Origin: Kiloniellales bacterium
GTDB lineage: Bacteria > Pseudomonadota > Alphaproteobacteria > Kiloniellales > J153
Assembly (NCBI GenBank): GCA_036397065.1
Contig: DASWJP010000023.1
Span: forward strand, 1 to 63,136
Direction: 5' to 3'
DNA: 63,136 bases
Shown here: positions 6,062-54,733 of the stretch, piece after piece
How positions within the stretch are numbered: position 1 is the first letter of the stretch
How the letters are laid out: the number at the start of each line of letters is the position of its first letter
Program-made: the position numbers and the translations under genes
Notes under the pieces: model-generated
What the model saw: only the letters and a program-made list of their open reading frames with translations
What the model was told of the DNA's origin: nothing
The model's database searches: none

Positions 6062-6117
6062 ACGCCAAGCAGCCAAGCCGGCGGCCGCGCGCAACGCCAC
6101 CCCCCGATGCGCGGGCG

Positions 6118-9918: not shown

Positions 9919-10011
9919 GCCGTCGTCCGCGCCGAGACTGCAGCAGAGGAAATCTGCGCGGCGGACAACCGATGCGGTGAGTCCGGATCGCTGGCCGGAG
10001 GATCGCCGGTC

Positions 10012-13687: not shown

Positions 13688-15007
13688 TCACCGGGGATCG
13701 CGCAGCGGCAGCAGCAAGAGCAACCCGACCAGGAAGAAGAGCACGATCGTCGCCATGCCGGCGCGCTGGCTGTCGGCCCACAAGGTGACTGTGCCCACCA
13801 GGGCCGGCCCGACGAAGGCGGTCGCCTTACCGGACAGGGCATAGAGGCCGAACAGTTGCGTGCGCTGGTCCGCCGGGGCCAGATGCGCCATCAGCGAGCG
13901 GCTGGCCGATTGCGCCGGGCCAATGAAGACGCCGATAACGCAGCCGAGCGCCGTGAAGGCCAATCGGGAGTCGACCACCAGGATGGCGGTACTGGCGGCA
14001 CACAGGCCGGCGAGGGCGATGACGATGGTGCGCTTCGGGCCGATCCAATCGTCCACCCAGGCAAAGCCCGCCGCGCCCAGCCCGGCGGCGATGTTCAAGA
14101 CGATGCCGAAGATCAGAATCTCCTGGAACGTCATGCCGAAGGTGCCCGCCGCATAGATGCCGCCAAAGGCAAACAGCGTATTCAGACCGTCGGTGTAGAT
14201 CATGTGGGCGAGCAGAAAGAGCCCGGTCTGTCCGTGCCGCGGCAGGTCCTTGAGGGTGCGTCCGAGGCTGTGCAAGCCCCGGCGCAAACTCTCGGCCAGG
14301 GGCTGCCGGTGCGGCGGCGCATCGGGCACGAAGAGGAACAGCGGCAAGGCGAAGACGGCAAACCATCCGGCGACAAACGGACCGATGATGCGCACGTGCT
14401 CGGCGGCGTCCGCATCCAAACCGAACAAGGGCGGGCTCGGTTGCACGAACAGCACCAGGCTCAACGCCAGGCATGCGAGCCCGCCGGCGTAGCCGGCGCT
14501 CCACGCCCAGCCGGAGATCCGGCCCAGGCGCTCCGGCGCCGCCACATCCGGCAGCATGGCGTTGTAAAACACCTGGCCGAACTCGAAGGCCGCATTGCCG
14601 ATGGCCACCAGCACCAGGGCGAGCACGATGAACGCCGGGCCGGCTTCGACCCACCACAGGCCGGCGCCGCAGGCGATGGCCAGGATCGTGAAGGCGCCGA
14701 TCCACGGCTTGCGCCGCCCGCCCTGGTCGGCGATGGCCCCGAGAATGGGCGCCAGAATGGCCACGGCCAGCCCCGAGAGGGCAAGCGCATGGCCCCATTG
14801 CGCCGTACCGATTTCCGGCGTCTCGGCCACCGTGGAGGTGAAATAGGCGGCAAAGACGAAGGTGATGACCACCGTCGGATAGGACGAGTTGGCCCAATCG
14901 AAACTGCACCAGGCCAGCAGCCGGCCGAGCGGGCCAAAGCCCCGCCGGGTCCCGGAGCCGTTCCCGGCGGCGGGGCTGCTCTGTTGGCCCGGTTGGCCAG
15001 TGCCCAT
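13688..15007 (-). CDS. MFS transporter (UMF1/Atg22-like)
   Basis: The 439-aa protein has about 12 hydrophobic segments. Its N-terminal WCSFDWANSSY motif is typical of the UMF1 subfamily. Confidence 0.8.
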   Translation of the reverse strand: MGTGQPGQQSSPAAGNGSGTRRGFGPLGRLLAWCSFDWANSSYPTVVITFVFAAYFTSTVAETPEIGTAQWGHALALSGLAVAILAPILGAIADQGGRRKPWIGAFTILAIACGAGLWWVEAGPAFIVLALVLVAIGNAAFEFGQVFYNAMLPDVAAPERLGRISGWAWSAGYAGGLACLALSLVLFVQPSPPLFGLDADAAEHVRIIGPFVAGWFAVFALPLFLFVPDAPPHRQPLAESLRRGLHSLGRTLKDLPRHGQTGLFLLAHMIYTDGLNTLFAFGGIYAAGTFGMTFQEILIFGIVLNIAAGLGAAGFAWVDDWIGPKRTIVIALAGLCAASTAILVVDSRLAFTALGCVIGVFIGPAQSASRSLMAHLAPADQRTQLFGLYALSGKATAFVGPALVGTVTLWADSQRAGMATIVLFFLVGLLLLLPLRDPR

Positions 15008-25400: not shown

Positions 25401-25988
25401 GGAAACTTCGCTTTCGCCGCTGCTGCTGCCGCTGTTCTGCGGCGGCGCTGGCTCACCCCCACTGCCGGTTCCATTCCCGGTTCCATCGCCGGTCCCGTCC
25501 CCCGTCCCGTCACCGGTTCCATCGCCGTCACCCTGGGCCGCTTCGCCCTCGCCATTCTGCCCCGCGCCGGCGGCCGCGGCGGCCGGGTCATCGGCCGCGA
25601 TTTGCTGCGCCTCGCCCGCATCTTCGCCGTTGTTCCCGGGATCGGTCGGGTCCTTGTCGTCCTTTTTGTCCTTTTCCTTCTCTTCTTCCTGCTGCACCGC
25701 CCGCAGGCGCAGGTTCATCAAGGCATCCAGGGTCATGGTGGTGAGATCGGCCGGCAGCTCGTCGAGAGTCGGCACATCGTTGCCGGCCGCCGGCGGCGCC
25801 TTGTCCCGGAGGGCGTCGGCCGGGTCCTGCCCCGGCGCGGACCGCAGGGGCAGATCCATCAGCTGTTCAATATCGACCGTGGTCGGATCGGCGGGCAGGG
25901 GTTTAGGCGCCAGGGAACCGCCGTCATCGGGCGATGCGGCGGGCTCCGCGGTCGTCGCGGCCATTTGAACGATCGAAGGTGGAGCCAC
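22437..25988 (-). CDS. large secreted RTX-type surface protein (Ig/cadherin-like modules + 7-repeat module + Ca-binding repeats + type I secretion C-terminal target domain)
   Basis: The GTG start has AGGA 5 nt upstream. GGxGxD-type nonapeptides (GGSGNDSFIGGSLADTLSGGAGNDRLEGALGADQLFGGSGDD) span aa 1018-1080. The C-terminal tail ends ...ATLIVDSDITLNGDLLL, like T1SS substrates of the VCA0849 type. There is no N-terminal signal peptide. Confidence 0.9.
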   Translation of the reverse strand: MAPPSIVQMAATTAEPAASPDDGGSLAPKPLPADPTTVDIEQLMDLPLRSAPGQDPADALRDKAPPAAGNDVPTLDELPADLTTMTLDALMNLRLRAVQQEEEKEKDKKDDKDPTDPGNNGEDAGEAQQIAADDPAAAAAGAGQNGEGEAAQGDGDGTGDGTGDGTGDGTGNGTGSGGEPAPPQNSGSSSGESEVSSFGRTIQVLPADLVYAAALSSGDPVQSAPVTQPVAAAPVVVQQVAASTPPPNAAPLAKGDTAATAAATPVTVSVLANDSDPEGSRLHVMAVTQGVHGSVAINPDGTLTYAPKAGFSGIDTFTYTISDGNGGSSSAAVSVTVAPPLPPVNVAPVAQNDQAATAEDAAVVINVLGNDTDANGDTLQVSAVTQGQHGQVSINSDGTLTYIPQADFFGVDSFSYTISDGRGGFSTATVSLVIKPVNDAPVAADDAASTDQGQPVTFAVLANDSDVDGDPLTVTSVTSGANGKVAINADGTLTYVPASGFAGTDSFTYTVSDGQGGSAQATVSVLVNAVNAPPVAADSVAAMESGTPISGLLTAADPDNSPADLRFSLATAPAHGTAVVQADGTYTYTPATGFTGTDTFTFTVADPSGASASASVTVSVLPSPTGSGAGGEFVANTTTAGAQQVPAMAALKDGGFVIAWESQNQDGSGFGIFAQRFDADGTAIGPEFRANTYVLNHQQAPSAAALADGGFVLVWQSPNQDGNNLGVFGKRFDANGQAVGPEFQVNTFALGAQDSPAVAALADGGFVVAWQSQNQDGNNNGVFALRYDAAGQAAGREFQVNTFTQNAQQAPDVTALSDGGFVIVWESQNQDGNNAGVFGQRYAANGLRIGGEFQVNTTTQNAQQAPHAAALAGGGFVVVWESQNQDGSNFGIFGQRFAAGGSRLGGEFQVNTTAAGAQQAASITALADGGFTVVWQSDGQDGSGFGIFGQRYDANGATTGQEFQINVFTAGGQGVPDVAVLADGSLAVSWQSTGQDGASEGIIARVVDVSPSTGHTLTGGSGNDSFIGGSLADTLSGGAGNDRLEGALGADQLFGGSGDDILLWDPADAVIDGGAGTDTLQVMGGNVNLPAFAGKIGGLEVIDMATDTGTNQLTLRVQDVLDLSDTDVLTVLGDAGDSVNAGTGWTQAGSDGQGHDIYTQTVGGVVATLIVDSDITLNGDLLL
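22941..24095 (-). repeat. seven tandem in-frame 165-bp (55-aa) coding repeats
   Basis: The EF(Q/R/V)(V/A/I)N motif begins at aa 632, 687, 742, 797, 852, 907 and 962, a period of exactly 55 aa with no indels. The consensus is EFQVNT....AQQAP...ALADGGFVVVWQSQNQDG...G(V/I)FGQR(F/Y)DA.G...G. Confidence 0.88.
24129..25235 (-). repeat. four tandem Ig/cadherin-like coding modules of about 90-95 aa
   Basis: The repeated pattern is V(L)ANDSD.(D/E)G..L.V..VT.G.HG.V.IN.DGTLTY.P..GF.G.D.F.YT(I/V)SDG.GG...A.VSV, at roughly aa 252-338, 347-434, 440-527 and 533-620. Confidence 0.75.
25455..25532 (-). repeat. short coding micro-repeat (GDGT/GNGT tetrapeptide units, aa 153-178)
   Basis: The translation is GDGDGTGDGTGDGTGDGTGNGTGSGG, encoded by near-identical 12-nt units. 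Confidence 0.7.
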
Positions 25989-41635: not shown

Positions 41636-42124
41636 TCAGCGCCGCCGATAGAGAAAATAGCGGCCCGGTGAAACACCTGGGGGCAGGTTCAATGCCATGG
41701 CATCGAGGCCGGGCAGCGCAAGATCCGAGACCAGCACTCCGCCCGGCACCAACAGGCCGGGCAGATGCTGGGCAAGAAAATCCGCCAGCCGCGCATTCAG
41801 CGCCCGGTCGCCACTGCCGATATCGCTATGGATCAGCGGCACGCGGGCGCGCAGCCGCACCGCCACCGCCGGCAGGGTGTCCCGGATATCGCCGAGGATC
41901 AGATCGTCCCCAGCCGGGCCGATCATGGGATCGTGGGGCGCGAATTGTTCGAAGACGATGATTTGGCGGCCGGGGAAAAGTTCCCGCACATGGTCGTAGG
42001 TCCGCCCATTGCCCAAGCCCACCTCGAGAATGGGGCCGCTCCGGTGGCCCATCAGCTCGGCGGCATGGGCCAGGCACGCGTGTTGCGCGCGCAACCGGCG
42101 GATCAGGCTGTCGAGGCGGCTCAC
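41636..42124 (-). CDS. small class I SAM-dependent methyltransferase-like protein (paralogue B, 162 aa)
   Basis: Motif I-like ILEVGLGNGRTYDH, an acidic end of strand 2 (IIVFEQ), LILGDIRDTLP and LIHSDIGSGDR resemble cation-dependent O-MT / Methyltransf_24-type folds. The GTG start overlaps the upstream stop (GTGA). Confidence 0.6.
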   Translation of the reverse strand: MSRLDSLIRRLRAQHACLAHAAELMGHRSGPILEVGLGNGRTYDHVRELFPGRQIIVFEQFAPHDPMIGPAGDDLILGDIRDTLPAVAVRLRARVPLIHSDIGSGDRALNARLADFLAQHLPGLLVPGGVLVSDLALPGLDAMALNLPPGVSPGRYFLYRRR

Positions 42125-42633
42125 CCGGGACCGGTGGGTCCGGCGCGCCGATACAGGAAATAGGTGCCCGGCATCACCGGCGCCGGGGCCGGGGCCGGCA
42201 CCGGCTGCGCCCTGGCAAAGGCCACATCCCGGTCCGACGCGACCAGGCCGCCGGGCCGCAGCAGGTCCGGCAGAAAACCGGCGATGAAACGGGCCAGCCG
42301 GGCATCCCGCTGCCTATCCGCCGAACCCACATCGGCGTGCACCAGGGCCACCGTCCCGGCGAAGCGCGCCGCCGCCTGGGGCAGGGTCTCGTGAAAATCA
42401 CCGAGCAACAGGTGCGCCGCATCGGGAATACAGTCGGGATGGGCGGAGGCCTCCCGGTCGAAAACGAATATCTCCCGGCCCGGCAAGATCTCGCGCAGAT
42501 GGTCGTAGGTGCGGCCGTTGCCGAGTCCGAGCTCCAGGATCGGCCCCGGCAGATCGCGCACCAGATCAGCCAACGCATTCAGGCACGCCCGTTGCGTCTC
42601 CAGACGCCGGATATTGATATCCAACCGACTCAC
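42121..42633 (-). CDS. small class I SAM-dependent methyltransferase-like protein (paralogue A, 170 aa)
   Basis: It is roughly half identical by eye to paralogue B. Both start MSRLD..IRRL..Q.ACL and share ILELGLGNGRTYDH, LLLGDFHETLP, LVHADVGSADR and the C-terminal YFLYRR. Confidence 0.6.
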   Translation of the reverse strand: MSRLDINIRRLETQRACLNALADLVRDLPGPILELGLGNGRTYDHLREILPGREIFVFDREASAHPDCIPDAAHLLLGDFHETLPQAAARFAGTVALVHADVGSADRQRDARLARFIAGFLPDLLRPGGLVASDRDVAFARAQPVPAPAPAPVMPGTYFLYRRAGPTGPG

Positions 42634-42664: not shown

Positions 42665-43117
42665 TCAGCCGCGCGCCGCGGTGCGCTCCTTGGTCAGTTG
42701 CGCCGTGGTTTGTTCCAGGCGATGGGCCAATACACGCATGACCTCGACTCCCATCTCGGGAAAATCCGTGACCATGCGGAAAAACAGATCCTTGGTGATC
42801 CGCAAGGTCGTCAGCTCGCTGGTGGCGGTCACGGTCGCGGTCCGCGGCACTTCGCAGAGAATGGCGATTTCGCCGACGATGTCGTTCTGGGCCAGCTTGG
42901 CGACCACCGTGGGCTTGTCGGTGGTGACGATCACATCCGCGGTGCCGCTGGCGATGATATACGCCGAGTCGGCGGAATCGCCCTGATCGAACAGCGACTG
43001 TCCCGGCTTGAAGGTCAGGCGTTCGCTGGCAAAGCACATGAGCTTGAGCTTTGCCGGATCGATGTTGGCGAAAAGCGGGATTTTCCGCAGAATTTCAACT
43101 TCCTGTTCAATACTCAC
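42665..43117 (-). CDS. stand-alone cyclic nucleotide-binding (CNB/cNMP) domain protein, no output domain
   Basis: The 150-aa protein starts at GTG with GGAGG 5 nt upstream. It begins LRKIPLFANID and has a phosphate-binding-cassette-like GEIAILCEVPRTATVTA. No HTH or other domain follows. Confidence 0.85.
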   Translation of the reverse strand: MSIEQEVEILRKIPLFANIDPAKLKLMCFASERLTFKPGQSLFDQGDSADSAYIIASGTADVIVTTDKPTVVAKLAQNDIVGEIAILCEVPRTATVTATSELTTLRITKDLFFRMVTDFPEMGVEVMRVLAHRLEQTTAQLTKERTAARG

Positions 43118-43138: not shown

Positions 43139-45850
43139 TTATTCCGCTGCCAAAATACCACTGAGTGCCGAGCCCGGTTTGCACAATTCGGCGAAGCTGC
43201 CCTGTTCCAACAAACGCCCGTCGCGCATGACCATCACCCGGTCGAAGCGTTCGCCGGCCCGCGGCCGCTGCAGGGTCCAGACCACGCCGCGGCCCTGGCG
43301 GTGGTCGAGAACCTTGCCGAGCAGCCGCGTCTGCGTGGCCTCGTCCATGGCGGCCAGGGCGTCGTTGACGATCAGCATATCCGGTTGCTTCAACAGGGCC
43401 CGGGCCAAGCCGATTTTCTGCCGCTGGTTGCCGCTGAGGCGATTGCCGCCGATGCCGACGCCATAATCGAGCCCGGCCTCGATGACGATCGCACGCAGAC
43501 CCAGATCGTCGAGAACCGCGGTCATGGCCCGGCCGACGATATCCTCCGCCTTGGCCTGGCCATAGGCAAGGCGGCCGAACAGGATGTTGTCCTGCAAAGT
43601 CGCGGCGGCGTTGTAGGCGTCCGGCCGGTAGATGGCCACCGCCTCGGGATCGCTCTCGGCCAGGCGCTCGGCGAACAGACGGCGGGCCTCGACCGCCCGC
43701 GCCTCGACCGCATCGTCGATCAGGCCCAGACGGTGGCGGGCCTCGACATAGGCGAAGGGCAGGCGGCGTAGCGCCAGGCTTTCGGCGGCCGCCAGGGCCT
43801 GCTCGCCCTGGCGGTCCACCTTGCTGAGCAGGTTGCGGTATTCCGGCAGCCCATCGGCATCGATAAAGCTGAACTGTTCGAAGAACGGGTGGCCGGGCGG
43901 CAGGCCGGCGAAGATTTCCACCATGGTGCGGGCGATGCTCAGGCCCATGCGCAGCATATCGTCCATCATGCCGGAATCGGTCAGAACCCGTATCATCAAC
44001 GGATTTTCCGCCAACATTTCTGTAGCGAACCCGGCCTTGCGCGGGGTTCCGAACAAAAGATTCTCGGCCAGTGAGGCATTGCGGTTGTAGGCCTCGGGAT
44101 CGAAGCGAACGACCAGGGTTTGCCCGTCCACCGCCGCCAACCGGCCGGGCAGTGCCGCCCGCGCCTTGAGAATCGCACCGGTGATATCCGGGTGGACCCG
44201 GGGGTCGACGGTTCCGACCAATCCGAAGCGATAGACCTCGTCCTCCATCTCCACCAGGGACAAAACCTCGATCAGCCGCTGGGTCAACGCCGCGGGACTG
44301 GATGCGCCGGCGGCCTCGTAGTCGACCCAATCGGCGGCAATATCGAGGCTCGGATTGCCGGTGCGCACGGCTTCGGCGATCCAGCGCGTCCTGTCGGCAC
44401 CGTCATGTCCGGCGGCCTCCCGCAGAGGTCGATGCTTGAGGCCATAAAGCAGGTTTTCGCGCACCGACAGCGGAAACAGATAGGTCTCCGGCCCCACATA
44501 GGACAGGCGCCGGCCGGTGACCGCCTGCGGCAGGGTGCCCAGATCGCGCTTGCCGATCTCGATGCGCCCAGCGCTGGGCAGCTCGAGACCGCAGAGCATC
44601 AGCGCCAATCGTTCCTTGCCGCTGCCGTCGGTGCCGACGATGGCCGTATGCTCGGCCACGCCGATCTTGAAGCTGATCGAATCGAGCAGCCTGTTGTTGT
44701 TCTCATCGACCAGGCCCACCGCCTGGGCCACGATCTCGCCGGTCAGGGGCGGGCCGACGTCGGCCTCCGGATCCTGCTGTTCCGGCGCCAGGATTTGCGG
44801 CGGCTGGAACTGCTCGATCACCTGTTCATATTTGATCTGCACGTCATTGCGCTGCTGGTCCCAATCGATCAGTTCCTTGATCGGGCTCGGCAAATCCTTG
44901 TAGGCGGCGATCACGGCAACCAGGGCGCCGATATCGAGCTGCCCGTAGATGGCCAGCAAACCGCCGGCGGCGTAAAAGATGAACGGCGTGAGTTGCGCCA
45001 GGAAATTGTTCAGGAACTTGACGAAGAACTTGCGGCGAAAGATCTCGTAGCGGATGTCGAAGATCCGGCCCAGCCGCGCCGCCATATCGGCCCGCTCCAG
45101 ATTCGAGGCATCGTGCGCGTGCACCTCGGTGGCGCCGTCGATGATCTCGCCCACCCGGCCGGCCAGTAGCCGCGCGGTGATCTGCCGCTCCCGCCCGAGG
45201 CGCAGGATCGGCCGGCGCAACCGCGGGATAAAGAAGGCTTGCGCCAGCACGATCCCCGCCGCCACCAGGCCGAGCCACAGGCTTTGCAGCAGGATGAACG
45301 CCATGGCGGTGATCGCCTGGCCGCCCAAAAAGGCCGGTGCGATGAAGGCATCGCCGATGAAGCCGCCCAGCGGCTCCACCTCGTCCTTGATCATGGTGGC
45401 CATCTCGGCCTGCTTGACCTTGCGCACCTGAGGGATGGGGAAGCGCAGGATTCGATCGGTCAGCTCATAGCGCAGCCGGCGCAGCATGCGCTCGCCCAAG
45501 CGTCCCTTGTTGGTGTTGATGATGAATTTGAAGCCGCCATTGATCACAACCATGAACAGGAAGGCGAAGCTCAACGCCATCAAGTACTGGGGCTGGGTCA
45601 GCGCGAAGCCGTCGAACAGCCGCACCGGTGCCAGGTTCAGCCAATCGGCGAAGGGCAGATCGATGACCAGGAACGATTGCGTGGATCCGGGGCCGGCGAA
45701 GCCGACCCCCTGGATGCCGCGGTTGACGATGCCCTTGGGCAGATCGAGGGCGAGGAAATAGAACGGCAGCGACACCAACACCATGACCAGGATGTTGATC
45801 TGCTCGCCCTTGGAATGGCGCCAGATGTATTTGAAAAGGTTCGGTTCCAT
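43139..45850 (-). CDS. ABC exporter, fused TMD-NBD half-transporter with atypical expanded/degenerate NBD (903 aa)
   Basis: The N-terminal 6-TM type I exporter domain spans about aa 1-345. The NBD motifs are Walker A-like GTDGSGKE (aa 406-413), signature LSGNQ (aa 805-809) and Walker B MLIVND (aa 825-830). See the findings for the anomalies. Confidence 0.85.
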   Translation of the reverse strand: MEPNLFKYIWRHSKGEQINILVMVLVSLPFYFLALDLPKGIVNRGIQGVGFAGPGSTQSFLVIDLPFADWLNLAPVRLFDGFALTQPQYLMALSFAFLFMVVINGGFKFIINTNKGRLGERMLRRLRYELTDRILRFPIPQVRKVKQAEMATMIKDEVEPLGGFIGDAFIAPAFLGGQAITAMAFILLQSLWLGLVAAGIVLAQAFFIPRLRRPILRLGRERQITARLLAGRVGEIIDGATEVHAHDASNLERADMAARLGRIFDIRYEIFRRKFFVKFLNNFLAQLTPFIFYAAGGLLAIYGQLDIGALVAVIAAYKDLPSPIKELIDWDQQRNDVQIKYEQVIEQFQPPQILAPEQQDPEADVGPPLTGEIVAQAVGLVDENNNRLLDSISFKIGVAEHTAIVGTDGSGKERLALMLCGLELPSAGRIEIGKRDLGTLPQAVTGRRLSYVGPETYLFPLSVRENLLYGLKHRPLREAAGHDGADRTRWIAEAVRTGNPSLDIAADWVDYEAAGASSPAALTQRLIEVLSLVEMEDEVYRFGLVGTVDPRVHPDITGAILKARAALPGRLAAVDGQTLVVRFDPEAYNRNASLAENLLFGTPRKAGFATEMLAENPLMIRVLTDSGMMDDMLRMGLSIARTMVEIFAGLPPGHPFFEQFSFIDADGLPEYRNLLSKVDRQGEQALAAAESLALRRLPFAYVEARHRLGLIDDAVEARAVEARRLFAERLAESDPEAVAIYRPDAYNAAATLQDNILFGRLAYGQAKAEDIVGRAMTAVLDDLGLRAIVIEAGLDYGVGIGGNRLSGNQRQKIGLARALLKQPDMLIVNDALAAMDEATQTRLLGKVLDHRQGRGVVWTLQRPRAGERFDRVMVMRDGRLLEQGSFAELCKPGSALSGILAAE

Positions 45851-46118: not shown

Positions 46119-47360
46119 ATGGGGCACGGCCGCAAAGATAATCGCGTTCTCATTTACAGTCATGACAGTTTCGGCCTCGGCCATTTGCGCCGTTGCCGCG
46201 AGATCGCACACAGTTTGGTGGGTGCGGAGAACAACCTGTCGGTGTTGATTCTGTCCGGCTCGCCGATCATCGGCAGCTTCGATTTCCGCTCGCGCGTGGA
46301 TTTCGTGCGTATCCCGGGAGTCATCAAGCTGCGCAACGGCGAATACACGTCGCTGGGTCTGCATATCGATATCGAACAGACGTTGGCCATCCGCGCGTCG
46401 ATCGTCGAGCATACGGCGAACATTTTCGATCCGGATCTGTTCATCGTCGACAAGGAACCGTTGGGCCTGCACGGCGAGGTCCGCCGGACCCTGGCCATGA
46501 TGCAGGCGCGGGGGACGCCGTGCGTGCTTGGCCTGCGCGATGTGATGGACGATCCGGCCATTCTCAAGCCGGAATGGAAGCGCAAGAACGTGATTCCGGC
46601 CCTGAGCGCCTATTACGACGCGATCTGGGTCTATGGCCTGCCGCAGATCTGCGATCCCTTGGCCGATCTGGGCGTGCCGGACTGGATCCGCCAGAGGATG
46701 ACCTATACCGGCTATCTCAACCGGCATGTGCCGGAAACCGGGCCGACGTTTGTTCCGGAAAAGATCGCCGATCCCTATCTGCTGGTGACCGTCGGCGGCG
46801 GCGGCGATGGCGAGGCGATCATCGACTGGGTGCTGTCGGCCTACGAAACCGATCCGGATCTGCCGGACCCGGCCTTGCTCGTTCTTGGCCCCTTCATGGG
46901 TCCGCAGTATCAGGCGGAGTTCCTGCAGCGTGCCGCGCGCCTGGACAAGGTGGAGGCGATCACCTTCGATGCCCATATCGAAAGCCTTATGGCCAGCGCC
47001 AAGGGGATCGTCTGCATGGGCGGCTACAACACATTTTGCGAGGTACTCTCATTCGACAAGCGGGCCCTGGTGATTCCGCGCACCGTGCCCCGGCTTGAGC
47101 AGTACATTCGCGCCGTTCGCGCCCAGGAGCTGGGCCTGGTGCAGGTTCTGGTCGATGAAGGGGTGCGCGATCCGCGCCAGATGGCCCAGGCTCTGCGCCG
47201 TCTGCCGACCCAGCCGCTGCCCTCGAGCGTCAGCGTGCCGGGCCTGCTCGATGGCCGCGAGAACGTGGTCAAGCTGGCCAGCCAATTGCTGCACGACCGC
47301 CGGCACTCGTTCGTCTCGCGCGCGAATGTGTCCATGGCCGCCGGCCGCGGCGCGAAATAG
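46119..47360 (+). CDS. GT-B fold glycosyltransferase (MurG/GT28-like, COG4671-type), paralogue 1
   Basis: GGGGGAGG lies upstream of the ATG. It has the N-terminal RVLIYSHDSFGLGHLRRC motif and a C-terminal GGYNT.CE...F.K.ALV.PR nucleotide-sugar-binding region. Confidence 0.78.
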   Translation: MGHGRKDNRVLIYSHDSFGLGHLRRCREIAHSLVGAENNLSVLILSGSPIIGSFDFRSRVDFVRIPGVIKLRNGEYTSLGLHIDIEQTLAIRASIVEHTANIFDPDLFIVDKEPLGLHGEVRRTLAMMQARGTPCVLGLRDVMDDPAILKPEWKRKNVIPALSAYYDAIWVYGLPQICDPLADLGVPDWIRQRMTYTGYLNRHVPETGPTFVPEKIADPYLLVTVGGGGDGEAIIDWVLSAYETDPDLPDPALLVLGPFMGPQYQAEFLQRAARLDKVEAITFDAHIESLMASAKGIVCMGGYNTFCEVLSFDKRALVIPRTVPRLEQYIRAVRAQELGLVQVLVDEGVRDPRQMAQALRRLPTQPLPSSVSVPGLLDGRENVVKLASQLLHDRRHSFVSRANVSMAAGRGAK

Positions 47361-47431
47361 GAGAGAGAGACCGGATCCCCAGTGGGCCGGTGCCTTGACG
47401 GACCGGCGCCGGGCTCCCTAACCTCACTGCC

Positions 47432-48691
47432 ATGCCGGATCGTGCCGCACCCGGGCTTGTCGCTGTTGTGCTGAAGGGCTATCCGCGCCTGTCGGAAACC
47501 TTCATCGCCCAGGAGATCCATTCCCTGCAACAGCGCGGCTTGCGCCTCGCCCTCTATTCCCTGCGCCAGCCCACGGAAGCCGCGGTGCACCCGATCCACC
47601 GGGAGATCACCGCGCCGGTCACCTATTTGCCGGAGTATCTGCACGCGCAGCCGGGGCGCGTCTGGGCCGCCTGGCGGCGGGCACGGCGATTGCCGGGATA
47701 CGCCGCCGCGTGGCGCATCTTCCGGGGCGATCTGGCGCGCGAGCGCAGCCGCAACCGCATCCGCCGGTTCGGCCAGGCGTGCGTTCTGGCCGCCGAACTG
47801 CCGACCCAGGTGACGCGCCTCTATGCCCATTTTCTCCATACGCCGGCTTCGGTCGCCCGCTATGCCGCGGTCATGACCGGTTTGCCGTGGTGCGCCTCGG
47901 CCCATGCCAAGGATATCTGGACCACGCCGGAGTGGGAGATACGGGAAAAGCTGGCCGCCGCCGATTGGGTCACCACCTGCAGCGCCGCGGCCCGCGATCA
48001 TCTGGCCGCCCTGGCGCCCGGCCCGGAGAAGGTCACGCTCTCCTACCACGGCCTCGATTTCGCGCGCCTGCCGCCGCCACCCACCCGCCCACGCCGCGAT
48101 GGCGCGGACGCCGCCGATCCGGTGATCGTGCTGTCCGTCGGCCGCGCCGTCGAAAAGAAAGGGTACGACGATGTGCTCGATGCCCTGGTGCAATTGCCCA
48201 CGGATCTGCACTGGCGGCTGGTGCACATCGGCGGCGGCGAACGCACCAAGGCGCTGGCCGCCCGTGCCGCTGCCCTGGGATTGGCGCCGCGCATCACCTG
48301 GTTGGGCGCCCAGCCGCAGGAGCGGGTGCTGAGCGAATACGGTCGCGCCGATCTGTTCGTCCTGGCCAGCCGGATCGCCCGGGATGGCGATCGCGACGGC
48401 CTGCCGAACGTGTTGATGGAGGCGCAGAGCCAGGGCTTGCCCTGCATCGCCACCCGCGTCTCGGCCATTCCCGAACTGATCGAGCATCAGGCGACCGGCC
48501 TGCTGGTGCCGCCGGGCGATCCGGCCGCCTTGGCCGCGGCGCTGGCGCAGCTGATTCGCGACCCGCGGGCCCGGTCCGATTTGGGCGCCGCTGGGTGCCG
48601 GCGTGTGCGCGCCGACTTTTCCCTGACCGCCGGCATCGACACCATCGCCGCACGTTTCGGCTTGCCGCCCGCCGCCGCGGCGGCGCAGTAG
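47432..48691 (+). CDS. GT4 family glycosyltransferase (WcaL-like)
   Basis: The GT-B retaining family signature is EGLPNVLMEAQSQGLPCIATRVSAIPELIE (EX7E). The N-terminal YPRLSETFI motif is typical of WcaL-like enzymes. Confidence 0.86.
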   Translation: MPDRAAPGLVAVVLKGYPRLSETFIAQEIHSLQQRGLRLALYSLRQPTEAAVHPIHREITAPVTYLPEYLHAQPGRVWAAWRRARRLPGYAAAWRIFRGDLARERSRNRIRRFGQACVLAAELPTQVTRLYAHFLHTPASVARYAAVMTGLPWCASAHAKDIWTTPEWEIREKLAAADWVTTCSAAARDHLAALAPGPEKVTLSYHGLDFARLPPPPTRPRRDGADAADPVIVLSVGRAVEKKGYDDVLDALVQLPTDLHWRLVHIGGGERTKALAARAAALGLAPRITWLGAQPQERVLSEYGRADLFVLASRIARDGDRDGLPNVLMEAQSQGLPCIATRVSAIPELIEHQATGLLVPPGDPAALAAALAQLIRDPRARSDLGAAGCRRVRADFSLTAGIDTIAARFGLPPAAAAAQ

Positions 48692-48723
48692 CCGGGCGGC
48701 GCGGCCGCCGGCCCAGACCCCGC

Positions 48724-49857
48724 ATGCGGATCGCTTTTTACGCCCCCCTGAAGCCGCCCTCCCATCCGGTCCCCTCGGGCGACCGGCGCATGTCGCGGCT
48801 GCTGCTCTTGGCCCTGCGCCGCGCCGGCCACCGGGTGGAGGTGGCCAGCCGTCTGCGCAGCCGCGACGGCACCGGCGATTCGGCCCGGCAAGCACGCGTC
48901 GCCCGCGCCGGGGCGGCCACCGCCCAGCGCCTGATCCAGCGCTACCGGAAACGGCCGGCGGCGGAGCGGCCGCGCGTTTGGATGACCTATCACCTCTACT
49001 ACAAGGCACCGGATTGGCTGGGCCCGGCGGTCAGCGCGGCCCTGGGCATTCCCTACGTGGCGGTGGAGGCTTCGGTGGCCGGCAAACGGGCGGAAGGATC
49101 GTGGGCCGATGGCCATCGCGCGACATTGGAAGCCTTGGCGCACGCGGCCGCCGTGATCGCCGTCAATCCGGCGGATGTGGCCGCCTTGCCCGATCCCGGC
49201 CGGGTGCATCTGCTGCCGCCGTTTCTCGACCCGGCACCCTTTCGCGCCGCCGTCCAGGCGCGCGAATCCAATCGCGCCGCTTTTGCAAAACAACTGGGCA
49301 TCGCCGCCGCGCCGCCGTGGCTGCTGGCGGTGGCCATGATGCGCCCCGGCGACAAGCTGACCTCCTACCGGCAATTGGCCACGGCCCTGGCCGGTCTCGC
49401 GGATCGCCCTTGGCGGTTGCTGATCGCCGGCGACGGCGCGGCCCGGCCGGAGGTGGAGCGGGCTTTCGCCTGGGCGCCGCCGGAGCGGGTGCAATTTCTC
49501 GGCGCCTTGCCGGGTGCGGCCCTGCCCGCTCTGTATGCCGCCTGCGACGTGCTGGTCTGGCCGGCGCACAACGAGGCCTATGGCATGGCTTTGCTGGAGG
49601 CGCAGGCGGCCGGGCTGCCGGTGCTCGCCGGAGCCAGCGGCGGGGTCGCCGCCATCGTGCGCGACGGGCGCACGGGCGTGCTCACGCCGCCGGGCGACAC
49701 GAATGCCTTTGCCGCCGCCCTGGACGGGCTATTGGCGGACCCGGCGCGGCGCCGGACCATGGCCGAAGCGGCCGAGGCAACGGTTGCCGCCGCGCATGGC
49801 ATCGACCGGGCGGCCGCCCGATTGGATGAGATTCTCAATCGGGTGACGGCGCCATGA
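48724..49857 (+). CDS. GT4 family glycosyltransferase
   Basis: The real start is the ATG at 48724 (MRIAFYAPLKPP). It has the EX7E region EAYGMALLEAQAAGLPVLAGASGGVAAIV. The upstream part of the listed 715-aa ORF is an artefact. Confidence 0.85.
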   Translation: MRIAFYAPLKPPSHPVPSGDRRMSRLLLLALRRAGHRVEVASRLRSRDGTGDSARQARVARAGAATAQRLIQRYRKRPAAERPRVWMTYHLYYKAPDWLGPAVSAALGIPYVAVEASVAGKRAEGSWADGHRATLEALAHAAAVIAVNPADVAALPDPGRVHLLPPFLDPAPFRAAVQARESNRAAFAKQLGIAAAPPWLLAVAMMRPGDKLTSYRQLATALAGLADRPWRLLIAGDGAARPEVERAFAWAPPERVQFLGALPGAALPALYAACDVLVWPAHNEAYGMALLEAQAAGLPVLAGASGGVAAIVRDGRTGVLTPPGDTNAFAAALDGLLADPARRRTMAEAAEATVAAAHGIDRAAARLDEILNRVTAP

Positions 49858-50480
49858 CTCCGCTGGTGCTCATCCGCCACGGCCCGACCGAATGGAATGC
49901 CGAGGGCCGCATCCAGGGCCATACGGACGTGCCGCTGTCGCCCGCCGGGGTGCAAACGGTGCGCGGATGGTCCTTGCCGGCCGAGATCGTGGCCGCCGCC
50001 GAAGCCTGGGACTGGCGGGTCAGCCCCCTGGCCCGCGCCCGGCAAACCGCCGAACTGCTGGTGCCGTCGGCGGCCCGCGCCGCGCTTCAGTGCGAGCCGG
50101 CGCTGATCGAGAGCCATTGGGGCGCGTGGGAGGGGCAGCACCTGGCGGATGTCCGCCAGGCCGGCGGTGCCGAGGTGGCCGAGGCGGAGGCCCGCGGCCT
50201 CGACTTCGCGGCCCCCGGCGGCGAATCGCCGCGCCAGGCGCAGGCGCGGCTGGCACCGTTCCTGGCCGCGGTCGCGGCGGGCAGGCGGCCCACGGTCGCC
50301 ATCACCCACAAGGGCGTGATCCGCGCCATCTTCGCCTGGGCCGCCGCCTGGGACATGACCGGCAGGGCGCCGGTTCGCCTGCACTATGACTGCGCCCACG
50401 GTTTTCTGCTGCAAACCGATGGGGTCCCCATCATCGACCGCCTGAACATCCCGCTGCACCGGCCGGAGAATGCGCCATGA
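49854..50480 (+). CDS. histidine phosphatase (phosphoglycerate mutase-like) family protein
   Basis: It has the catalytic RHG motif (LIRHGPTEWN) and a downstream ITHKGVIR (His) motif. The ATG overlaps the upstream stop (ATGA). Confidence 0.85.
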   Translation: MTPLVLIRHGPTEWNAEGRIQGHTDVPLSPAGVQTVRGWSLPAEIVAAAEAWDWRVSPLARARQTAELLVPSAARAALQCEPALIESHWGAWEGQHLADVRQAGGAEVAEAEARGLDFAAPGGESPRQAQARLAPFLAAVAAGRRPTVAITHKGVIRAIFAWAAAWDMTGRAPVRLHYDCAHGFLLQTDGVPIIDRLNIPLHRPENAP

Positions 50481-51631
50481 CCGACGTGCTGTTCTATGTG
50501 CAGCACCTGCTCGGCATCGGCCATCTGCGCCGGGCGGCGTTGATCGCCAAGGCCATGGATCGGGCCGGCCTCGGCGTGGTCCTGGTCAGCGGCGGACAGC
50601 CGGTGCCGGGGCTGGACGTGGGCGGGGCGGCGCTCGTGCAACTGCCGCCGCTGCGGGCCCGCGACGATCGCTTTTCCGAGCTGGTCGACGGCGCTGGCAA
50701 ACCGGTAGGTGCGGCATGGAAAGCGGCGCGGGCCGCCCGCTTGCTTGAAATTTACGACCAGTCCCGGCCCAAGGTGCTGCTCATCGAGATGTTTCCCTTT
50801 GGCCGGCGCCTCATGCGCTTCGAGCTGCTTCCGCTATTGGAGGCGGCGCAAGCATCCCGGCCTCGGCCGCAAATTCTCTGTTCCCTGCGCGATGTGCTCG
50901 GTGCGGCGCGCTCGGCCGAGAAGGTTGAGTGGATGCTGACTACGTTCCATCGATTCTTCGATCAACTCCTGGTGCACGGCGATCCGGCGTTCCTGCCGTT
51001 GCAACACAGCTTTCCCCGGGCCGGCGAGATTGCCGCCAAGACGCGCTATACCGGCTACGTGGTCGAAGACGTGCACAAAGGCGAAGCGAAGGCGGGCTCG
51101 TCTGGCGAGGTCGTCATCTCCGCCGGCGGCGGTGCCGTGGCCGGGCCGTTGATCGCGGCGGCCCTGGCGGCACGGCCCCTGAGCCCGTTGGCATCGGTGC
51201 CCTGGCGCATCCTGGTGGGCAACAACCTGCCCGAGGACGCATTCCAGGCCGCCCGCGGCGCGGCGCCGGCCGGGGTCATGGTCGAACGGGCGCGCGCGGA
51301 TTTCACCGCCCTCTTGGCACGGGCGCGTTTGTCCATCAGCCAGGGCGGCTATAACACGATCCTTGAGGTTCTCGCCGCCAGGATACCCGCGGTCGTCGTG
51401 CCCTTTGCCGGCAGCGGCGAGACCGAGCAGAATGTGCGCGCCACGGCCCTGGGCGACCGCGGGGCGATCACCGTGCTGACGGAGGCGCAGCTGTCGCCGG
51501 CGGCCCTGGCCGCGGCGATCCAGCGGGCCCTGTCGGCCGCACCGCAACCGACGGATTTGCGCCTCGATCTGGGCGGCATGGAGAAAACAGCGCAGATCGT
51601 GGGCCAAGCTGCTGCTATAGTAACCCCATGA
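50477..51631 (+). CDS. GT-B fold glycosyltransferase (MurG/GT28-like, COG4671-type), paralogue 2
   Basis: The N-terminal VLFYVQHLLGIGHLRRA parallels the motif in 46119-47360. The C-terminal region is SQGGYNTILEVLAARIPAVVVPF. It has ATGA overlaps at both ends. Confidence 0.78.
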   Translation: MTDVLFYVQHLLGIGHLRRAALIAKAMDRAGLGVVLVSGGQPVPGLDVGGAALVQLPPLRARDDRFSELVDGAGKPVGAAWKAARAARLLEIYDQSRPKVLLIEMFPFGRRLMRFELLPLLEAAQASRPRPQILCSLRDVLGAARSAEKVEWMLTTFHRFFDQLLVHGDPAFLPLQHSFPRAGEIAAKTRYTGYVVEDVHKGEAKAGSSGEVVISAGGGAVAGPLIAAALAARPLSPLASVPWRILVGNNLPEDAFQAARGAAPAGVMVERARADFTALLARARLSISQGGYNTILEVLAARIPAVVVPFAGSGETEQNVRATALGDRGAITVLTEAQLSPAALAAAIQRALSAAPQPTDLRLDLGGMEKTAQIVGQAAAIVTP

Positions 51632-52461
51632 CCGATTGGCCGGATCTGACCCAGGAACTGGATGCGTGGGCCGCCGACGGCACCGCCGTGACCCTGTGGT
51701 GGCGCGACGACGATGCGGTGGAGCCGACGCCGGCGCTCGAACACCTGCTCGAGCTGACGGTGCGCCATGGGGTGCCCTTGGCCTTGGCGGTCATTCCCGG
51801 ACGCGCGTCCCTGGCCTTGGCGGCCCGCATCGCCGCCACCAGCGACACGATCGTGCCGGTGCAACATGGCTTTGCCCACCGCAACCACGCCCAGCCGCCG
51901 GCCCGCAAGGCCGAGCTGGGCGCGGACCGGCCGGCCACCGTGGTATGCGAGGAACTGGCGCGTGGCCAGGCGCGCATGGCGGCCTTGTTCGGCGCCCGGG
52001 CCATGCCCTTTCTGGTGGCGCCATGGAACCGGATCGACGGCGGCGTGATTGCGGCCTTGCCCGGCCTGGGATACCGGGCGCTCTCGACCTATGACGCGCG
52101 GCCCGCCACGCATGCGGCGCCCGGCTTGGCGCAGGTGAATTGCCATCTCGATATCATGCGCTGGACGGCGTCACGGGGATTTGCCGGCGATGCCGTTGCC
52201 CTGAAGCGTTTGCTGCATCATCTGCGCGCACGGCGCAGCGGCGCCGTGGACGCGACCGAGCCCACGGGACTTCTCACCCACCACGCCGCGCACGATGCCG
52301 AAAGCTGGATCTTCCTGGACCGGCTGCTCATGGTCCTGCGCGCCCATCCGGCGGTGCGATTCGTCTCCATCGTGGAGGCGGTGCAGGCCGCGTTGTCCAG
52401 TCAAGAAGAGCGCCCCGCTGTGCAAAATACCGCCCTGAAGTCTGCCGCGGGGGCGGCGTGA
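51628..52461 (+). CDS. polysaccharide deacetylase (CE4/NodB-like) family protein
   Basis: LWWRDDD (the TFDD-like Asp pair) and HGFAHRNH (a His pair) are plausible CE4 metal/catalytic motifs. The assignment is by eye. Confidence 0.65.
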   Translation: MTDWPDLTQELDAWAADGTAVTLWWRDDDAVEPTPALEHLLELTVRHGVPLALAVIPGRASLALAARIAATSDTIVPVQHGFAHRNHAQPPARKAELGADRPATVVCEELARGQARMAALFGARAMPFLVAPWNRIDGGVIAALPGLGYRALSTYDARPATHAAPGLAQVNCHLDIMRWTASRGFAGDAVALKRLLHHLRARRSGAVDATEPTGLLTHHAAHDAESWIFLDRLLMVLRAHPAVRFVSIVEAVQAALSSQEERPAVQNTALKSAAGAA

Positions 52462-53368: not shown

Positions 53369-54733
53369 CTACGGCACCAGCACCACCACATCGACGGGAT
53401 GACCGACGCCGGCCACCGCCGAGGCCGCGATCCGGCGCGGTGGGCCGGCGGGGGCGGGGGCGTAGCCTTGCGCCAGGGCCCGCGCGTAGGTTTCGGCATC
53501 GCAGATCGCATGGGTTCCCAACGGCTTGTTGTGCTGCTCCAACTTGGCGGAGCGATTCACCGCATCGCCGATGACCGTATATTCCAGGCGCGTCTCGTCG
53601 CCGACGGCCCCGAAAAGGACCCGGCCGGTGGCCACCGCCGCATTCACCTCCGGGCAATCTTCGCCGCGTCCGCGCAATTCGTCGCGCCAGTCTTGGGCGT
53701 TGCGGATGGCCTCATCGACGGCGCGCAGCGCATCGGCCGCATAGGTCGTCGACGGCAGGGCCGCGCCGAAGGTCGCCATGATCCCGTCGCCGAGAAATTT
53801 GTCGATGCTGCCGCCGTGCGCCTGAACGACCGGCACGATGTGATGCTGGTAGTCGGCCAGCAATTTCATCACCCGGTCCGGGCTGGCGGTCTCGGCCAAC
53901 CGGGTAAAGCCGCGCATGTCGAAGTTGACCACGGCGGCCTCGCGAATCTCGCCGCTGCCGGCGGCGATCGCTTGATCGGAGCCGCGGATCTTTCGCGCGA
54001 TCTCGGGGGCGAAGAAGCGCGACAGCTCGCGCGCGGCGGCGGCCTCGGCGACCGAGCGGACCAGAAGCGCGCGGCCGCGAATCAAGGCCGCGCCGAGAAT
54101 CAGGGAGACCACGAGGATGGAGACGATCTTGTCGAACTCGGCGCCCAGCAGAATGCTGTTCGAGGTCATGTATTCCACATAGTTGCGGGTGATCATGTTG
54201 TCGTTCGGATCGACCGAGATCACGTAGAACACCATGGCCAGCCAGCCCACCGCCGCCGCCACGCCGGCGGCGAGCACGAAGCGCGCCTCGAAGCGCAGCG
54301 CCCGCAAAGCGATGAAGATGAAGACATAGAGCAAGGTCGGCGCCTTCAGATAGAACGACGCCGGCTGCATGTATTGAATGTGGAAGCTCCAGATGAGGCC
54401 GAACAGCAGGGCCATGTCGATGACAATGGAGACCAGCAGGAACCAGCCGGGCAGACTGATGCGATAGGCCAGCATCAGACGAATCAGGGTGAACACCATA
54501 TAGGCGCCGATGGCCCAGGGCACCGGCCGGAACGCTTGCTCCACCGGGAATGTTTTCGGCGAGATCGCATAGAGGGCGGCGAAGGTCACGACGACGGCCA
54601 ATTGCACCCAGCCGATCAGGCGCTCGGTCGCATCGCCCTGTTCCTGGATCGTATGGCGCACCCGCTCCGGCAGCCCAGTCTCCGGGCCACGGCGTAACCT
54701 GCCGATCTTCATGCGCCGCAACACGGTTGCCAT
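53369..54733 (-). CDS. membrane-bound class III adenylate/guanylate cyclase (6 TM + cyclase homology domain)
   Basis: Six N-terminal hydrophobic helices are followed by a CHD with the metal Asp contexts VVNFDMRGFT and KFLGDGIMATFG, and the downstream YTVIGDAVNRSAKLE. Confidence 0.9.
   Translation of the reverse strand: MATVLRRMKIGRLRRGPETGLPERVRHTIQEQGDATERLIGWVQLAVVVTFAALYAISPKTFPVEQAFRPVPWAIGAYMVFTLIRLMLAYRISLPGWFLLVSIVIDMALLFGLIWSFHIQYMQPASFYLKAPTLLYVFIFIALRALRFEARFVLAAGVAAAVGWLAMVFYVISVDPNDNMITRNYVEYMTSNSILLGAEFDKIVSILVVSLILGAALIRGRALLVRSVAEAAAARELSRFFAPEIARKIRGSDQAIAAGSGEIREAAVVNFDMRGFTRLAETASPDRVMKLLADYQHHIVPVVQAHGGSIDKFLGDGIMATFGAALPSTTYAADALRAVDEAIRNAQDWRDELRGRGEDCPEVNAAVATGRVLFGAVGDETRLEYTVIGDAVNRSAKLEQHNKPLGTHAICDAETYARALAQGYAPAPAGPPRRIAASAVAGVGHPVDVVVLVP

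Follow-up and report, generated by a model that had tools for sequence, protein, structure and literature searches.

ATP-binding cassette (ABC) exporters are defined mechanistically by the ATP-driven dimerization of their nucleotide-binding domains (NBDs), and the same fold is also known to operate as a gated channel or a regulator, and not as a pump, in CFTR and SUR. A number of ABC proteins carry degenerate ATP sites (TM287/288, TmrAB, TAP1/2, CFTR, SUR1/2), and to our knowledge these always keep one consensus site, which a second subunit or a second NBD provides; likewise, we know of no well-studied degenerate case that does not preserve one working site. The subject of the present analysis is a protein of 903 amino acids (aa) encoded on the reverse strand of a 63,136-nucleotide (nt) stretch from a Kiloniellales bacterium (contig DASWJP010000023.1). 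The whole of this stretch is referred to below as the window, and residue numbers are those of the 903-aa protein. It associates a transmembrane domain (TMD) with an NBD that is enlarged by an internal triplication and that departs from the catalytic consensus at several motifs, and its gene is followed by one that codes for a stand-alone cyclic-nucleotide-binding (CNB) protein. These features suggest that the protein is probably a translocator or regulator that is switched by a cyclic nucleoside monophosphate (cNMP) and not by ATP hydrolysis.

The homodimeric type IV exporters and flippases MsbA, Sav1866 and PglK, and the core of PCAT1, display the same domain order (a 6-TM ABC_membrane domain, then the NBD) and the same fold, and are likewise tied genomically to glycoconjugate enzymes. 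The window protein differs from these exporters in that it lacks the catalytic consensus, carries approximately 290 extra residues, possesses a TMD that is more conserved than its NBD, is accompanied by a CNB partner, and scores far below every curated cut-off. With TM287/288, TmrAB, TAP1/2, CFTR and SUR1/2 it has in common a non-canonical Walker B/catalytic residue, and its H-loop Gln is also that of TAP1; in contrast to all of these, however, a single gene here departs from the consensus in both Walker motifs as well as in the H-loop and the signature, and both sites of a homodimer would be degenerate. SbmA and BacA are proton-driven importers that share the membrane fold, have no NBD and transport without an ATPase, whereas the window protein retains a complete, albeit degenerate and enlarged, NBD that is under purifying selection. 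The active ATPases of the SMC, Rad50 and RecF type also have a large insertion past the Q-loop, topologically equivalent in position, which forms a long antiparallel coiled coil; the insert of the window protein, in contrast, is modeled as a compact helix bundle that derives from duplicated helical-subdomain units, with no coiled coil. The remaining point of comparison is HetC, a cyanobacterial ABC exporter whose cNMP domain is essential in vivo, whose NBD is canonical, with an essential catalytic Glu970, and whose ligand in vitro is ppGpp (PMC10986499). In exporters of the HetC/NHLP type the cNMP domain is N-terminal and adjoins a C39 peptidase, whereas the CNB domain described here is C-terminal or separate and bears a canonical cAMP/cGMP cassette, and the ABC protein itself has a degenerate NBD and lacks a peptidase. 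Pfam searches of the window protein revealed neither a peptidase nor an N-terminal CNB domain, and its NCBIfam scores were 136 bits against TIGR03796 (cut-off 853) and 130 against TIGR03797 (cut-off 709); the CNB protein reached 37 bits against TIGR03896 (cut-off 161).

Both Pfam domains of the protein score over their gathering thresholds. ABC_membrane (PF00664) covers residues 88-314 (E 8.5e-12), while ABC_tran (PF00005, E 9.2e-16) aligns through its profile positions 1-80 with residues 389-492; in alignments with NCBIfam models and Protein Data Bank (PDB) chains, the rest of the cassette is regained at approximately residues 737-750 and ends at approximately 890-900. An AlphaFold2 (AF2) model of the full protein has a mean predicted local distance difference test score (pLDDT) of 90 and a predicted template modeling score (pTM) of 0.84, and a Foldseek search with this model matched TmrAB, MsbA, PCAT1 and TM287/288 (probability 1.00 for the first three), with TM-scores against homodimeric exporters of approximately 0.55-0.62 over the target. 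By profile and predicted fold, the window protein is thus a half-transporter with the type IV (ABCB-like) ABC exporter fold, and it belongs to a large uncharacterized family; the label given to it by PGAP is ‘ABC transporter ATP-binding protein’. None of the named exporter equivalogs (MsbA, HepA, CydDC, NdvA/ChvA, HlyB, PglK) was matched over its full length above the curated cut-off: all 171 NCBIfam matches are partial and lie below their cut-offs, the best, also partial, being MsbA (TIGR02203), with 154 bits against a cut-off of 602. This is, on the basis of its fold, a widespread and conserved member of the ABC superfamily that falls short of the catalytic-motif definition and of every curated exporter cut-off. 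An earlier note on this DNA had singled out the interval 43139-44737, which corresponds to residues 372-903 and is the entire NBD. Each of the strings quoted there was found at the residues and nucleotides given, including VVWTLQRP (856-863) and three 20-mers (451-470, 582-601 and 740-759), and the claim that the distance between Walker A and the signature motif is widened about four-fold holds as well, with 399 residues between positions 406 and 805 as compared to approximately 105 in the aligned chain of ABCB19.

Motifs were assigned through residue-by-residue alignment to ABCB19 and through the columns of the family alignment, and were counted in 79 species and, separately, in 137 clusters at 50% identity. 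In the alignment to ABCB19, the GSGKS of Walker A becomes GSGKE, with Glu413 in place of Ser/Thr, and the H-loop His becomes Gln861, both in agreement with the earlier reading of the sequence; in addition, the signature is LSGNQ in place of LSGGQ, and the Q-loop Gln position, absent from the note's list, is occupied by Pro454. With regard to Walker B, the string MLIVND does lie at residues 825-830 and the site is indeed non-canonical, but the proposed order of an Asp followed by an Ala is off by one residue: PDMLIVN-D-ALAAMD aligns over PKILLLD-E-ATSALD, which places Asn829 at the Walker B Asp and Asp830 at the position of the catalytic Glu. Alignment to PF00005 and to exporter profiles therefore upheld the Walker A and H-loop substitutions and shifted the register of Walker B. 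By motif definition, a catalytically competent NBD is not found in the window protein (GTDGSGKE, LIVN-D, LSGNQ, Pro454, Gln861), and the survey of homologues that the note had called for indicates that this degeneracy is a trait of the whole family. The Walker A Ser/Thr is replaced by Glu or Asp in 76 of the 79 species and 58 of the 137 clusters, and the Walker A Lys is kept in 59 and 44, respectively. At the Walker B position, Asn is present in 73 species and 67 clusters, and Asp in 4 species and 46 clusters; a Glu at the catalytic position is seen in 48/79 and 30/137, the H-loop His in 7/79 and 7/137, and the Q-loop Gln in 30/79 and 11/137. Two further features were counted among the clusters only: a full Walker A is present in 14 of the 137, and LSGGQ in none. 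No cluster carries the complete canonical motif set. In the orthologue of Sinorhizobium meliloti, Walker A reads GGTSGGGE, without the Lys.

Other parts of the NBD have been kept. The D-loop Asp836 is invariant (79/79 species), and the X-loop glycines 799 and 802, the signature residues Leu805 and Gln809, and Arg817 are also conserved; judging from established ABC structures, all of these positions mediate contacts between the two NBDs or between an NBD and the coupling helices. By its conserved columns, the NBD thus keeps its fold and the surfaces that face the membrane domain and the partner NBD, while the family has lost the ATP-hydrolysis consensus, and the overall picture would be that of a protein which still has the machinery for conformational change and a specific function of its membrane domain, but not the chemistry of an ATPase. 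Columns 413 (nt 44612-44614) and 829 (nt 43364-43366) covary: a Walker A Glu/Asp is accompanied by a Walker B Asn in 115 cases versus 8, and a Walker A Ser/Thr by a Walker B Asp in 15 versus 6 (Fisher p = 2e-10, kinship being ignored), a trend that persists among the 50%-identity clusters (24:7 versus 6:12). This coupling could reflect either a relocated metal ligand or mere shared ancestry. Many of the members with Ser/Thr read GK[ST]E, which makes the alignment ambiguous by one residue at this point, and the ‘GKE’ of the alphaproteobacterial clade could equally represent a one-residue deletion. Only one of 174 sequences, P0160 from a member of the Acidiferrobacteraceae (locus L090), displays the canonical Lys, Ser, Asp and Glu; it retains the insert and neighbours that code for two GT4 glycosyltransferases (GTs) and a phosphatase, and no CNB gene adjoins it. 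P0160 may be an intermediate toward the loss of catalysis and, as one data point, is consistent with such a loss having accompanied the gain of CNB control.

The family is broad. The best 120 matches in a collection of 5.8 billion proteins are all 897-950 aa in length, align over their full length and share 62-100% identity with the window protein; an exhaustive HMMER search retrieved 907 proteins at E <= 1e-30 among 50%-identity representatives, with full-length relatives down to 31% identity. Relatives are encoded in at least 489 species (one genome per species), mostly of the Kiloniellales, Rhodospirillales, Dongiaceae, Reyranella and Hyphomicrobiales, and the family-specific insert is present on 259 plasmid or chromid records from Rhizobium, Sinorhizobium, Azospirillum, Ruegeria and others. 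The orthologue on pSymB of S. meliloti 1021 is also 903 aa long and 48% identical over its full length (NC_003078.1, 841684-844996, including the CNB gene). Full-text searches of the literature returned no description of the family, and the pSymB locus goes unmentioned in the S. meliloti Clr regulon paper. The conservation index is 0.615 for the TMD and 0.38-0.42 for the NBD; the TMD is rarely the most conserved region of an ABC exporter, and here it includes many invariant charged residues (Glu120, Arg127, Glu157, Arg222, Arg227 and Arg267). Calculated against the closest orthologue (L001), beyond which dS is near saturation and pairwise dN/dS values are unreliable, the TMD has an omega of 0.08, and a value of 0.16 was obtained for the N-terminal NBD portion, the insert and the C-terminal NBD portion. 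A pseudogene is therefore ruled out by these omega values, and an assembly artefact by the recurrence of the architecture of approximately 900 aa in the genomes of at least 489 species. A fusion of two NBD genes was likewise rejected, given that the same length is found across hundreds of species, that the insert is an internal triplication, and that selection is purifying. The two most conserved TMD motifs, EVEPLGGFIGDAF (aa 157-172, nt ~45335-45382) and AYKDLPxPxKEL (aa 316-327, nt ~44870-44905), overlap the sole low-confidence helix breaks of the AF2 model (pLDDT <50 at residues 168-174 and 322-324), and are candidate hinge or substrate-gate elements.

The extra sequence between the Q-loop and the signature, of approximately 290 residues, consists of a triplication and two unique pieces. 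The similarity that the earlier note had perceived among three 20-mers extends over a repeat unit of approximately 85 aa that begins just before the Q-loop, runs through the helical subdomain and stops just before the X-loop and signature. In hhalign comparisons built on 99 aligned sequences with identities as low as 31%, and with refined boundaries, units 2 (554-639) and 3 (713-796) align over 84 columns (probability 99.2%, E 2e-19), units 1 (434-552) and 3 (724-802) over 79 columns (95.6%, E 1.3e-8), and units 1 and 2 over 73 columns (85.5%, E 5.6e-6); alignments of close relatives alone already relate residues 554-601 to 713-759 with E 1.7e-9. All three pairs thus bear out the triplication of the helical-subdomain region, and the insert is, by these profile comparisons, a true tandem triplication of the segment that goes from the Q-loop to the helical subdomain. 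According to DSSP, the units share the order helix, beta-strand, Q-loop-like turn, ‘xNLLFG’ helix, short second strand, and two VL..hGL..h..GL helices. Unit 1 holds a 38-aa sub-insert (residues 476-513), and unit 3 is the sole unit that runs on into the signature motif. Arg564 and Arg723, on the one hand, and Asn597 and Asn755, on the other, occupy equivalent positions in units 2 and 3, and are among the few residues that are invariant family-wide. No repeat and no known homologue could be detected for the 73-aa segment between units 2 and 3 (residues 640-712). A separate AF2 model of the insert is confident (pLDDT 91.6, pTM 0.81); in the models, its helices do not exceed 21 residues and pack as a compact bundle. 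Foldseek searches of the PDB with this model gave no significant match (best E 1.3, TM below 0.2), and none to an SMC/Rad50-like structure, with RecF at E 6.8; a hidden Markov model (HMM) of the insert found only chance matches among PDB sequences (E 0.1 or worse). Since both the structure and the sequence searches of the PDB were null, the kinship of the insert to a canonical cassette is visible solely through its internal repeat.

The product of the gene that follows is, by its fold and its cassette, a canonical cyclic-nucleotide-binding domain protein. PF00027 is matched with E 7.5e-19 (67.9 bits, cut-off 27.5), and the cassette GEIAILCEVPRTAT aligns with the phosphate-binding cassette of the protein kinase A regulatory subunit (RII-alpha), the pattern G[ED]IAIL..PR[TS]A being kept in nearly all of the 81 CNB sequences from the loci. 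The suggestion that this adjacent protein is the partner of the ABC protein is well borne out. Of 80 species loci, 78 have the CNB gene immediately behind the ABC gene, and in the other two the contig is truncated. A C-terminal cNMP_binding domain was identified by Pfam in nine of nine relatives of approximately 1000-1200 aa, and a local HMM search of 150 representative clusters detected an ABC-CNB fusion in 40, among which are all 39 that reach 990 aa or more. Such C-terminal fusions constitute classical Rosetta-stone evidence for a joint function of the two proteins, and on these genomic grounds the CNB protein is a genuine partner of the ABC protein. Two of the fusions, P0163 and P0189, bear a further GGDEF-like domain at the C-terminus, in which the GG[DE]EF motif is missing. 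The helix-turn-helix architecture of Crp/Fnr proteins was not found: Pfam detects the CNB domain alone, and the match to the CRP model covers positions 16-137 of 214 and is below cut-off. The CNB orthologue of S. meliloti pSymB (13848-14312 of locus L094, ~844.5 kb of NC_003078.1) carries the PGAP label ‘Crp/Fnr family transcriptional regulator’, which, since the protein is only 154 aa long and has no helix-turn-helix, is probably a misannotation that is spreading in rhizobial genomes. The 268-bp intergenic region that separates the ABC gene from the divergent operon contains no convincing CRP/Clr-like palindrome; one imperfect, GC-rich hairpin was seen.

The genomic surroundings (Table 1) point to a glycoconjugate pathway, and in this lineage the ABC gene is firmly embedded in a conserved cluster that codes for four GTs, a histidine phosphatase and methyltransferases. 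Among the 80 loci, 74 have a GT28-like gene on the divergent side of the ABC gene and 68 have the first GT4 gene, and at least one Methyltransf_17 copy is found downstream of the CNB gene in 59. Related loci mostly harbour one such copy and some harbour two, and the tandem pair of the window is paralogous; no literature on the Methyltransf_17 family was found. An Acidiferrobacteraceae member with 39% identity also has divergent GT4, GT4 and histidine phosphatase genes, with two GT28 genes nearby, and the association of the family with GTs is thus old, extending across Alpha- and Gammaproteobacteria. On S. meliloti pSymB the order is Opp-like importer, GT28, GT4, GT28, class I methyltransferase, ABC, CNB and FkbM methyltransferase. 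A methyltransferase is always encoded nearby, but its family differs by lineage, with Methyltransf_17 in the window and FkbM and class I enzymes in S. meliloti; no similarity was detected between the window Methyltransf_17 proteins and the S. meliloti class I enzyme, which are analogous and not orthologous. That non-homologous methyltransferases accompany the family in different lineages suggests that methylation of the product is a conserved requirement. The locus sits within a stable core-genome setting (FtsK, LolA, AmtB) whose synteny is the same across orders. An Opp/Dpp-type importer (a fused double ATPase, SBP_bac_5 and two permeases) adjoins the GT genes in Kiloniellales-like loci and on S. 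meliloti pSymB (L085, L087-L089, L091 and L092/L094). It may form one functional unit with them, serving for instance in re-uptake or precursor supply. Three other gene sets of the window bear no apparent relation to the ABC gene: a 1626-aa NAD-specific glutamate dehydrogenase (16162-21042, reverse strand), a 1183-aa cadherin/Big_9/RTX-repeat surface protein (22437-25988, reverse strand), and a heparinase II/III-like gene beside a Polysacc_synt_2 dehydratase (8140-11940, forward strand).

Class III adenylate/guanylate cyclase genes recur beside the ABC-CNB module, albeit not universally. In the window cyclase, residues 264-404 match the catalytic domain weakly (E 1.9e-7), and the N-terminal portion of approximately 250 residues has no Pfam match; a cyclase occupies the same position in the closest relatives (L001, L004, L054 and L086). 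Cyclase genes also flank two of the four fused ABC-CNB loci that were examined, and in one of these, L082, the enzyme is 42% identical to the window cyclase over its full length. Certain unfused members (L053, L064 and L066) have no GT neighbours, yet cyclases are encoded nearby. Beside the cyclase of L082 there is a gene for a metallo-beta-lactamase (MBL)-fold protein (5803-6573) with an Apyc1-like Pfam match, possibly a cNMP phosphodiesterase.

Table 1. Position of the ABC gene, of the segments of its product and of associated genes in the window
Feature	Coordinates	Strand	Size or residues	Characteristics	Basis
ABC half-transporter gene	43139..45850	(-)	903 aa	TMD and expanded, degenerate NBD	PF00664 and PF00005; AF2; Foldseek
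Transmembrane domain	44810..45850	(-)	aa 1-347	Six long helices	PF00664, DSSP, conservation index, omega
N-terminal RecA-like NBD core	44552..44737	(-)	aa 372-433	Walker A GTDGSGKE, aa 406-413, nt 44612-44635	Profile alignments, family columns
Repeat unit 1	44192..44551	(-)	aa 434-553	Helix, strand, Q-loop position Pro454, ENLLYG helix, sub-insert, VL..GL helices	hhalign; ABCB19 alignment of the Q-loop region
Repeat unit 2	43934..44191	(-)	aa 554-639	Invariant Arg564 and Asn597; YNxNA[ST]xAENLLFG	hhalign; invariant columns
Unique helical segment	43715..43933	(-)	aa 640-712	Conserved motif LPPGHPFFEQFSF, Arg707	Family alignment; insert-only model; null homology searches
Repeat unit 3	43442..43714	(-)	aa 713-803	Invariant Arg723 and Asn755; runs on into canonical helical subdomain and X-loop VGIGG	hhalign; NCBIfam/PDB alignments resume here
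C-terminal NBD core	43142..43441	(-)	aa 804-903	LSGNQ 805-809, Asn829, Asp830, D-loop Asp836, H-loop Gln861	Alignments, family columns
Stand-alone CNB protein	42665..43117	(-)	150 aa	21 nt past the ABC stop; own GGAGG ribosome-binding site	PF00027
Tandem Methyltransf_17 genes after the CNB gene	42121-42633 and 41636-42124	(-)	170 aa and 162 aa	4-nt overlap	Pfam (PF12692)
Divergent operon	46119..52461	(+)		GT28-like, GT4, GT4, histidine phosphatase, GT28-C, two open reading frames without Pfam match (one of 277 aa)	Pfam; conserved synteny
Class III adenylate/guanylate cyclase	53369..54733	(-)	454 aa	Runs toward the end of the GT operon (convergent)	PF00211

The explanation that is favoured for these observations, with a probability of approximately 0.42, is that of a cNMP-gated, hydrolysis-independent homodimeric translocator for the methylated glycoconjugate of the neighbouring cluster. 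The ABC protein would form a homodimer in which both composite ATP sites are non-catalytic, and the binding of cAMP or cGMP to the CNB partner, in place of ATP hydrolysis, would drive the closing and opening of the NBDs. Movement of the NBDs would then switch the well-conserved membrane domain between inward- and outward-facing states, with the enlarged helical subdomain offering additional surface for control by the CNB protein, and the second messenger would in this manner gate the passage, by export or flipping and probably in the energetically downhill direction, of the methylated glycoconjugate generated by the adjacent enzymes. The proposal that both sites of a homodimer are affected, already present in the earlier note, agrees with the fact that no second gene for an exporter-type TMD was found within 8-10 kb of the ABC gene in 84 loci, the rest of the genomes not having been searched. 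Furthermore, because the protein's own signature is degenerate, pairing with a canonical partner would still leave a degenerate element in each of the two composite sites.

A number of observations weigh against this proposal. Of the 39 fused CNB domains, approximately 17 do not conform to a strict pattern of the phosphate-binding cassette, and in HetC the cNMP-type domain of an ABC exporter binds ppGpp instead (PMC10986499). A cyclase is not adjacent in four of nine readable alphaproteobacterial loci (L085, L087-L089). Members carry the insert whether or not CNB or GT genes lie next to them and, as a consequence, a specific role of the insert in CNB docking cannot be deduced. Nor do the data point to an energy source that would power transport in the uphill direction. 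Lastly, the window protein still carries GxxGxGK, and most alphaproteobacterial orthologues have a Glu or Asp at the catalytic position, which leaves room for slow or unorthodox hydrolysis. Taken to its conclusion, this last point leads to an ATP-driven exporter with an unorthodox site, where the acidic residue would have moved from Walker B to Walker A, Mg-ATP would be hydrolyzed slowly, and the CNB protein would modulate only the rate. The covariation of Walker A and Walker B (115 versus 8 and 15 versus 6, upheld in the 50% clusters), the GxxGxGK and acidic catalytic position of the window protein, and the invariance of Asp836 in the 79 species are all in line with such an enzyme; however, the Walker A Lys is missing in 20 of the 79 close orthologues, in about two thirds of the clusters and in the S. 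meliloti protein, LSGGQ occurs in no cluster and the H-loop His is nearly always gone, while the covariation statistic ignores kinship and relies on an alignment that is ambiguous by one residue at GK[ST]E. A residual ATPase of this type is thus considered decidedly unlikely. It is also conceivable, although on balance unlikely, that the family does not transport at all, and that the membrane domain detects a cue from the membrane or the periplasm, or serves as an anchor, while the NBD and CNB protein relay cNMP status to partners, much as SUR regulates a channel and does not pump, these partners being glycosyltransferases here and cyclases or GGDEF-type domains elsewhere. A signaling or scaffolding role of this nature would suit the decay of the catalytic motifs across the whole family, the fusion of certain members to CNB and GGDEF-like domains, the location of several members in purely signaling surroundings, with genes for cyclases, for response regulators and for an MBL-fold protein that resembles a phosphodiesterase, and without GT genes, and the absence of a known fold for the insert, which might be a protein-docking platform. 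Nevertheless, the TMD is the most conserved region and its many invariant polar and charged residues suit a substrate path at least equally; the link to GTs and methyltransferases spans Alpha- and Gammaproteobacteria, as expected of a pathway-dedicated translocator; and neither of the two GGDEF domains has retained its namesake motif.

The window protein could alternatively be the degenerate half of a heterodimeric exporter whose canonical partner is encoded elsewhere, as in TM287/288, TmrAB or TAP1/2. Structurally, TM287/288 and TmrAB are among the best matches of the model, and an H-loop Gln combined with a non-canonical Walker B/catalytic pair is typical of the degenerate subunit of such heterodimers (TAP1, TM287/288). 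The genes of heterodimeric exporters are normally adjacent, however, and a pair of half-transporter genes with one consensus site was found in none of the 84 loci, with the same limit of 8-10 kb and no genome-wide search for a partner; in addition, the degenerate signature of the window protein would impair the very site that it completes for its partner. This arrangement therefore seems very improbable. Still less credible, to the point of being barely so, is a Pycsar-like anti-phage module in which the cyclase would signal infection and a CNB-coupled membrane effector would respond. In PADLOC, the CNB protein does match PycTIR (5e-17), and the best match of the cyclase is PycC (6.6e-20), both at the domain level, and an Apyc1-like MBL gene adjoins the cyclase in L082; these matches, however, span generic CNB and cyclase domains only, the stable core-genome synteny of the locus across orders is unlike that of defence islands, and the locus is tied to a biosynthetic GT operon. 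The cNMP-gated translocator is thus retained as the preferred explanation.

The insert of this family represents a confidently modeled domain without a counterpart in the PDB, and the product of the GT/methyltransferase cluster would be worth identifying. Bacterial cAMP/cGMP signaling is known mainly through Crp-type transcription factors, whereas the obligatory pairing with a canonical CNB domain and the recurrence of cyclase genes nearby suggest an output of this signaling that is post-translational and acts at the level of the membrane. In S. meliloti, a genetic model in which both cAMP signaling and surface glycans matter for symbiosis, the pSymB copy makes the family testable. It is possible, although somewhat unlikely on the available sequence evidence, that this would be the first family with the ABC exporter fold to be wholly devoid of ATP hydrolysis, and that it would act as a translocator or receptor switched by a second messenger, connecting cNMP signaling to the export of envelope glycoconjugates in many Alphaproteobacteria, including rhizobia. 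The family constitutes a natural experiment on what else may drive, or replace, the power stroke of ABC proteins.

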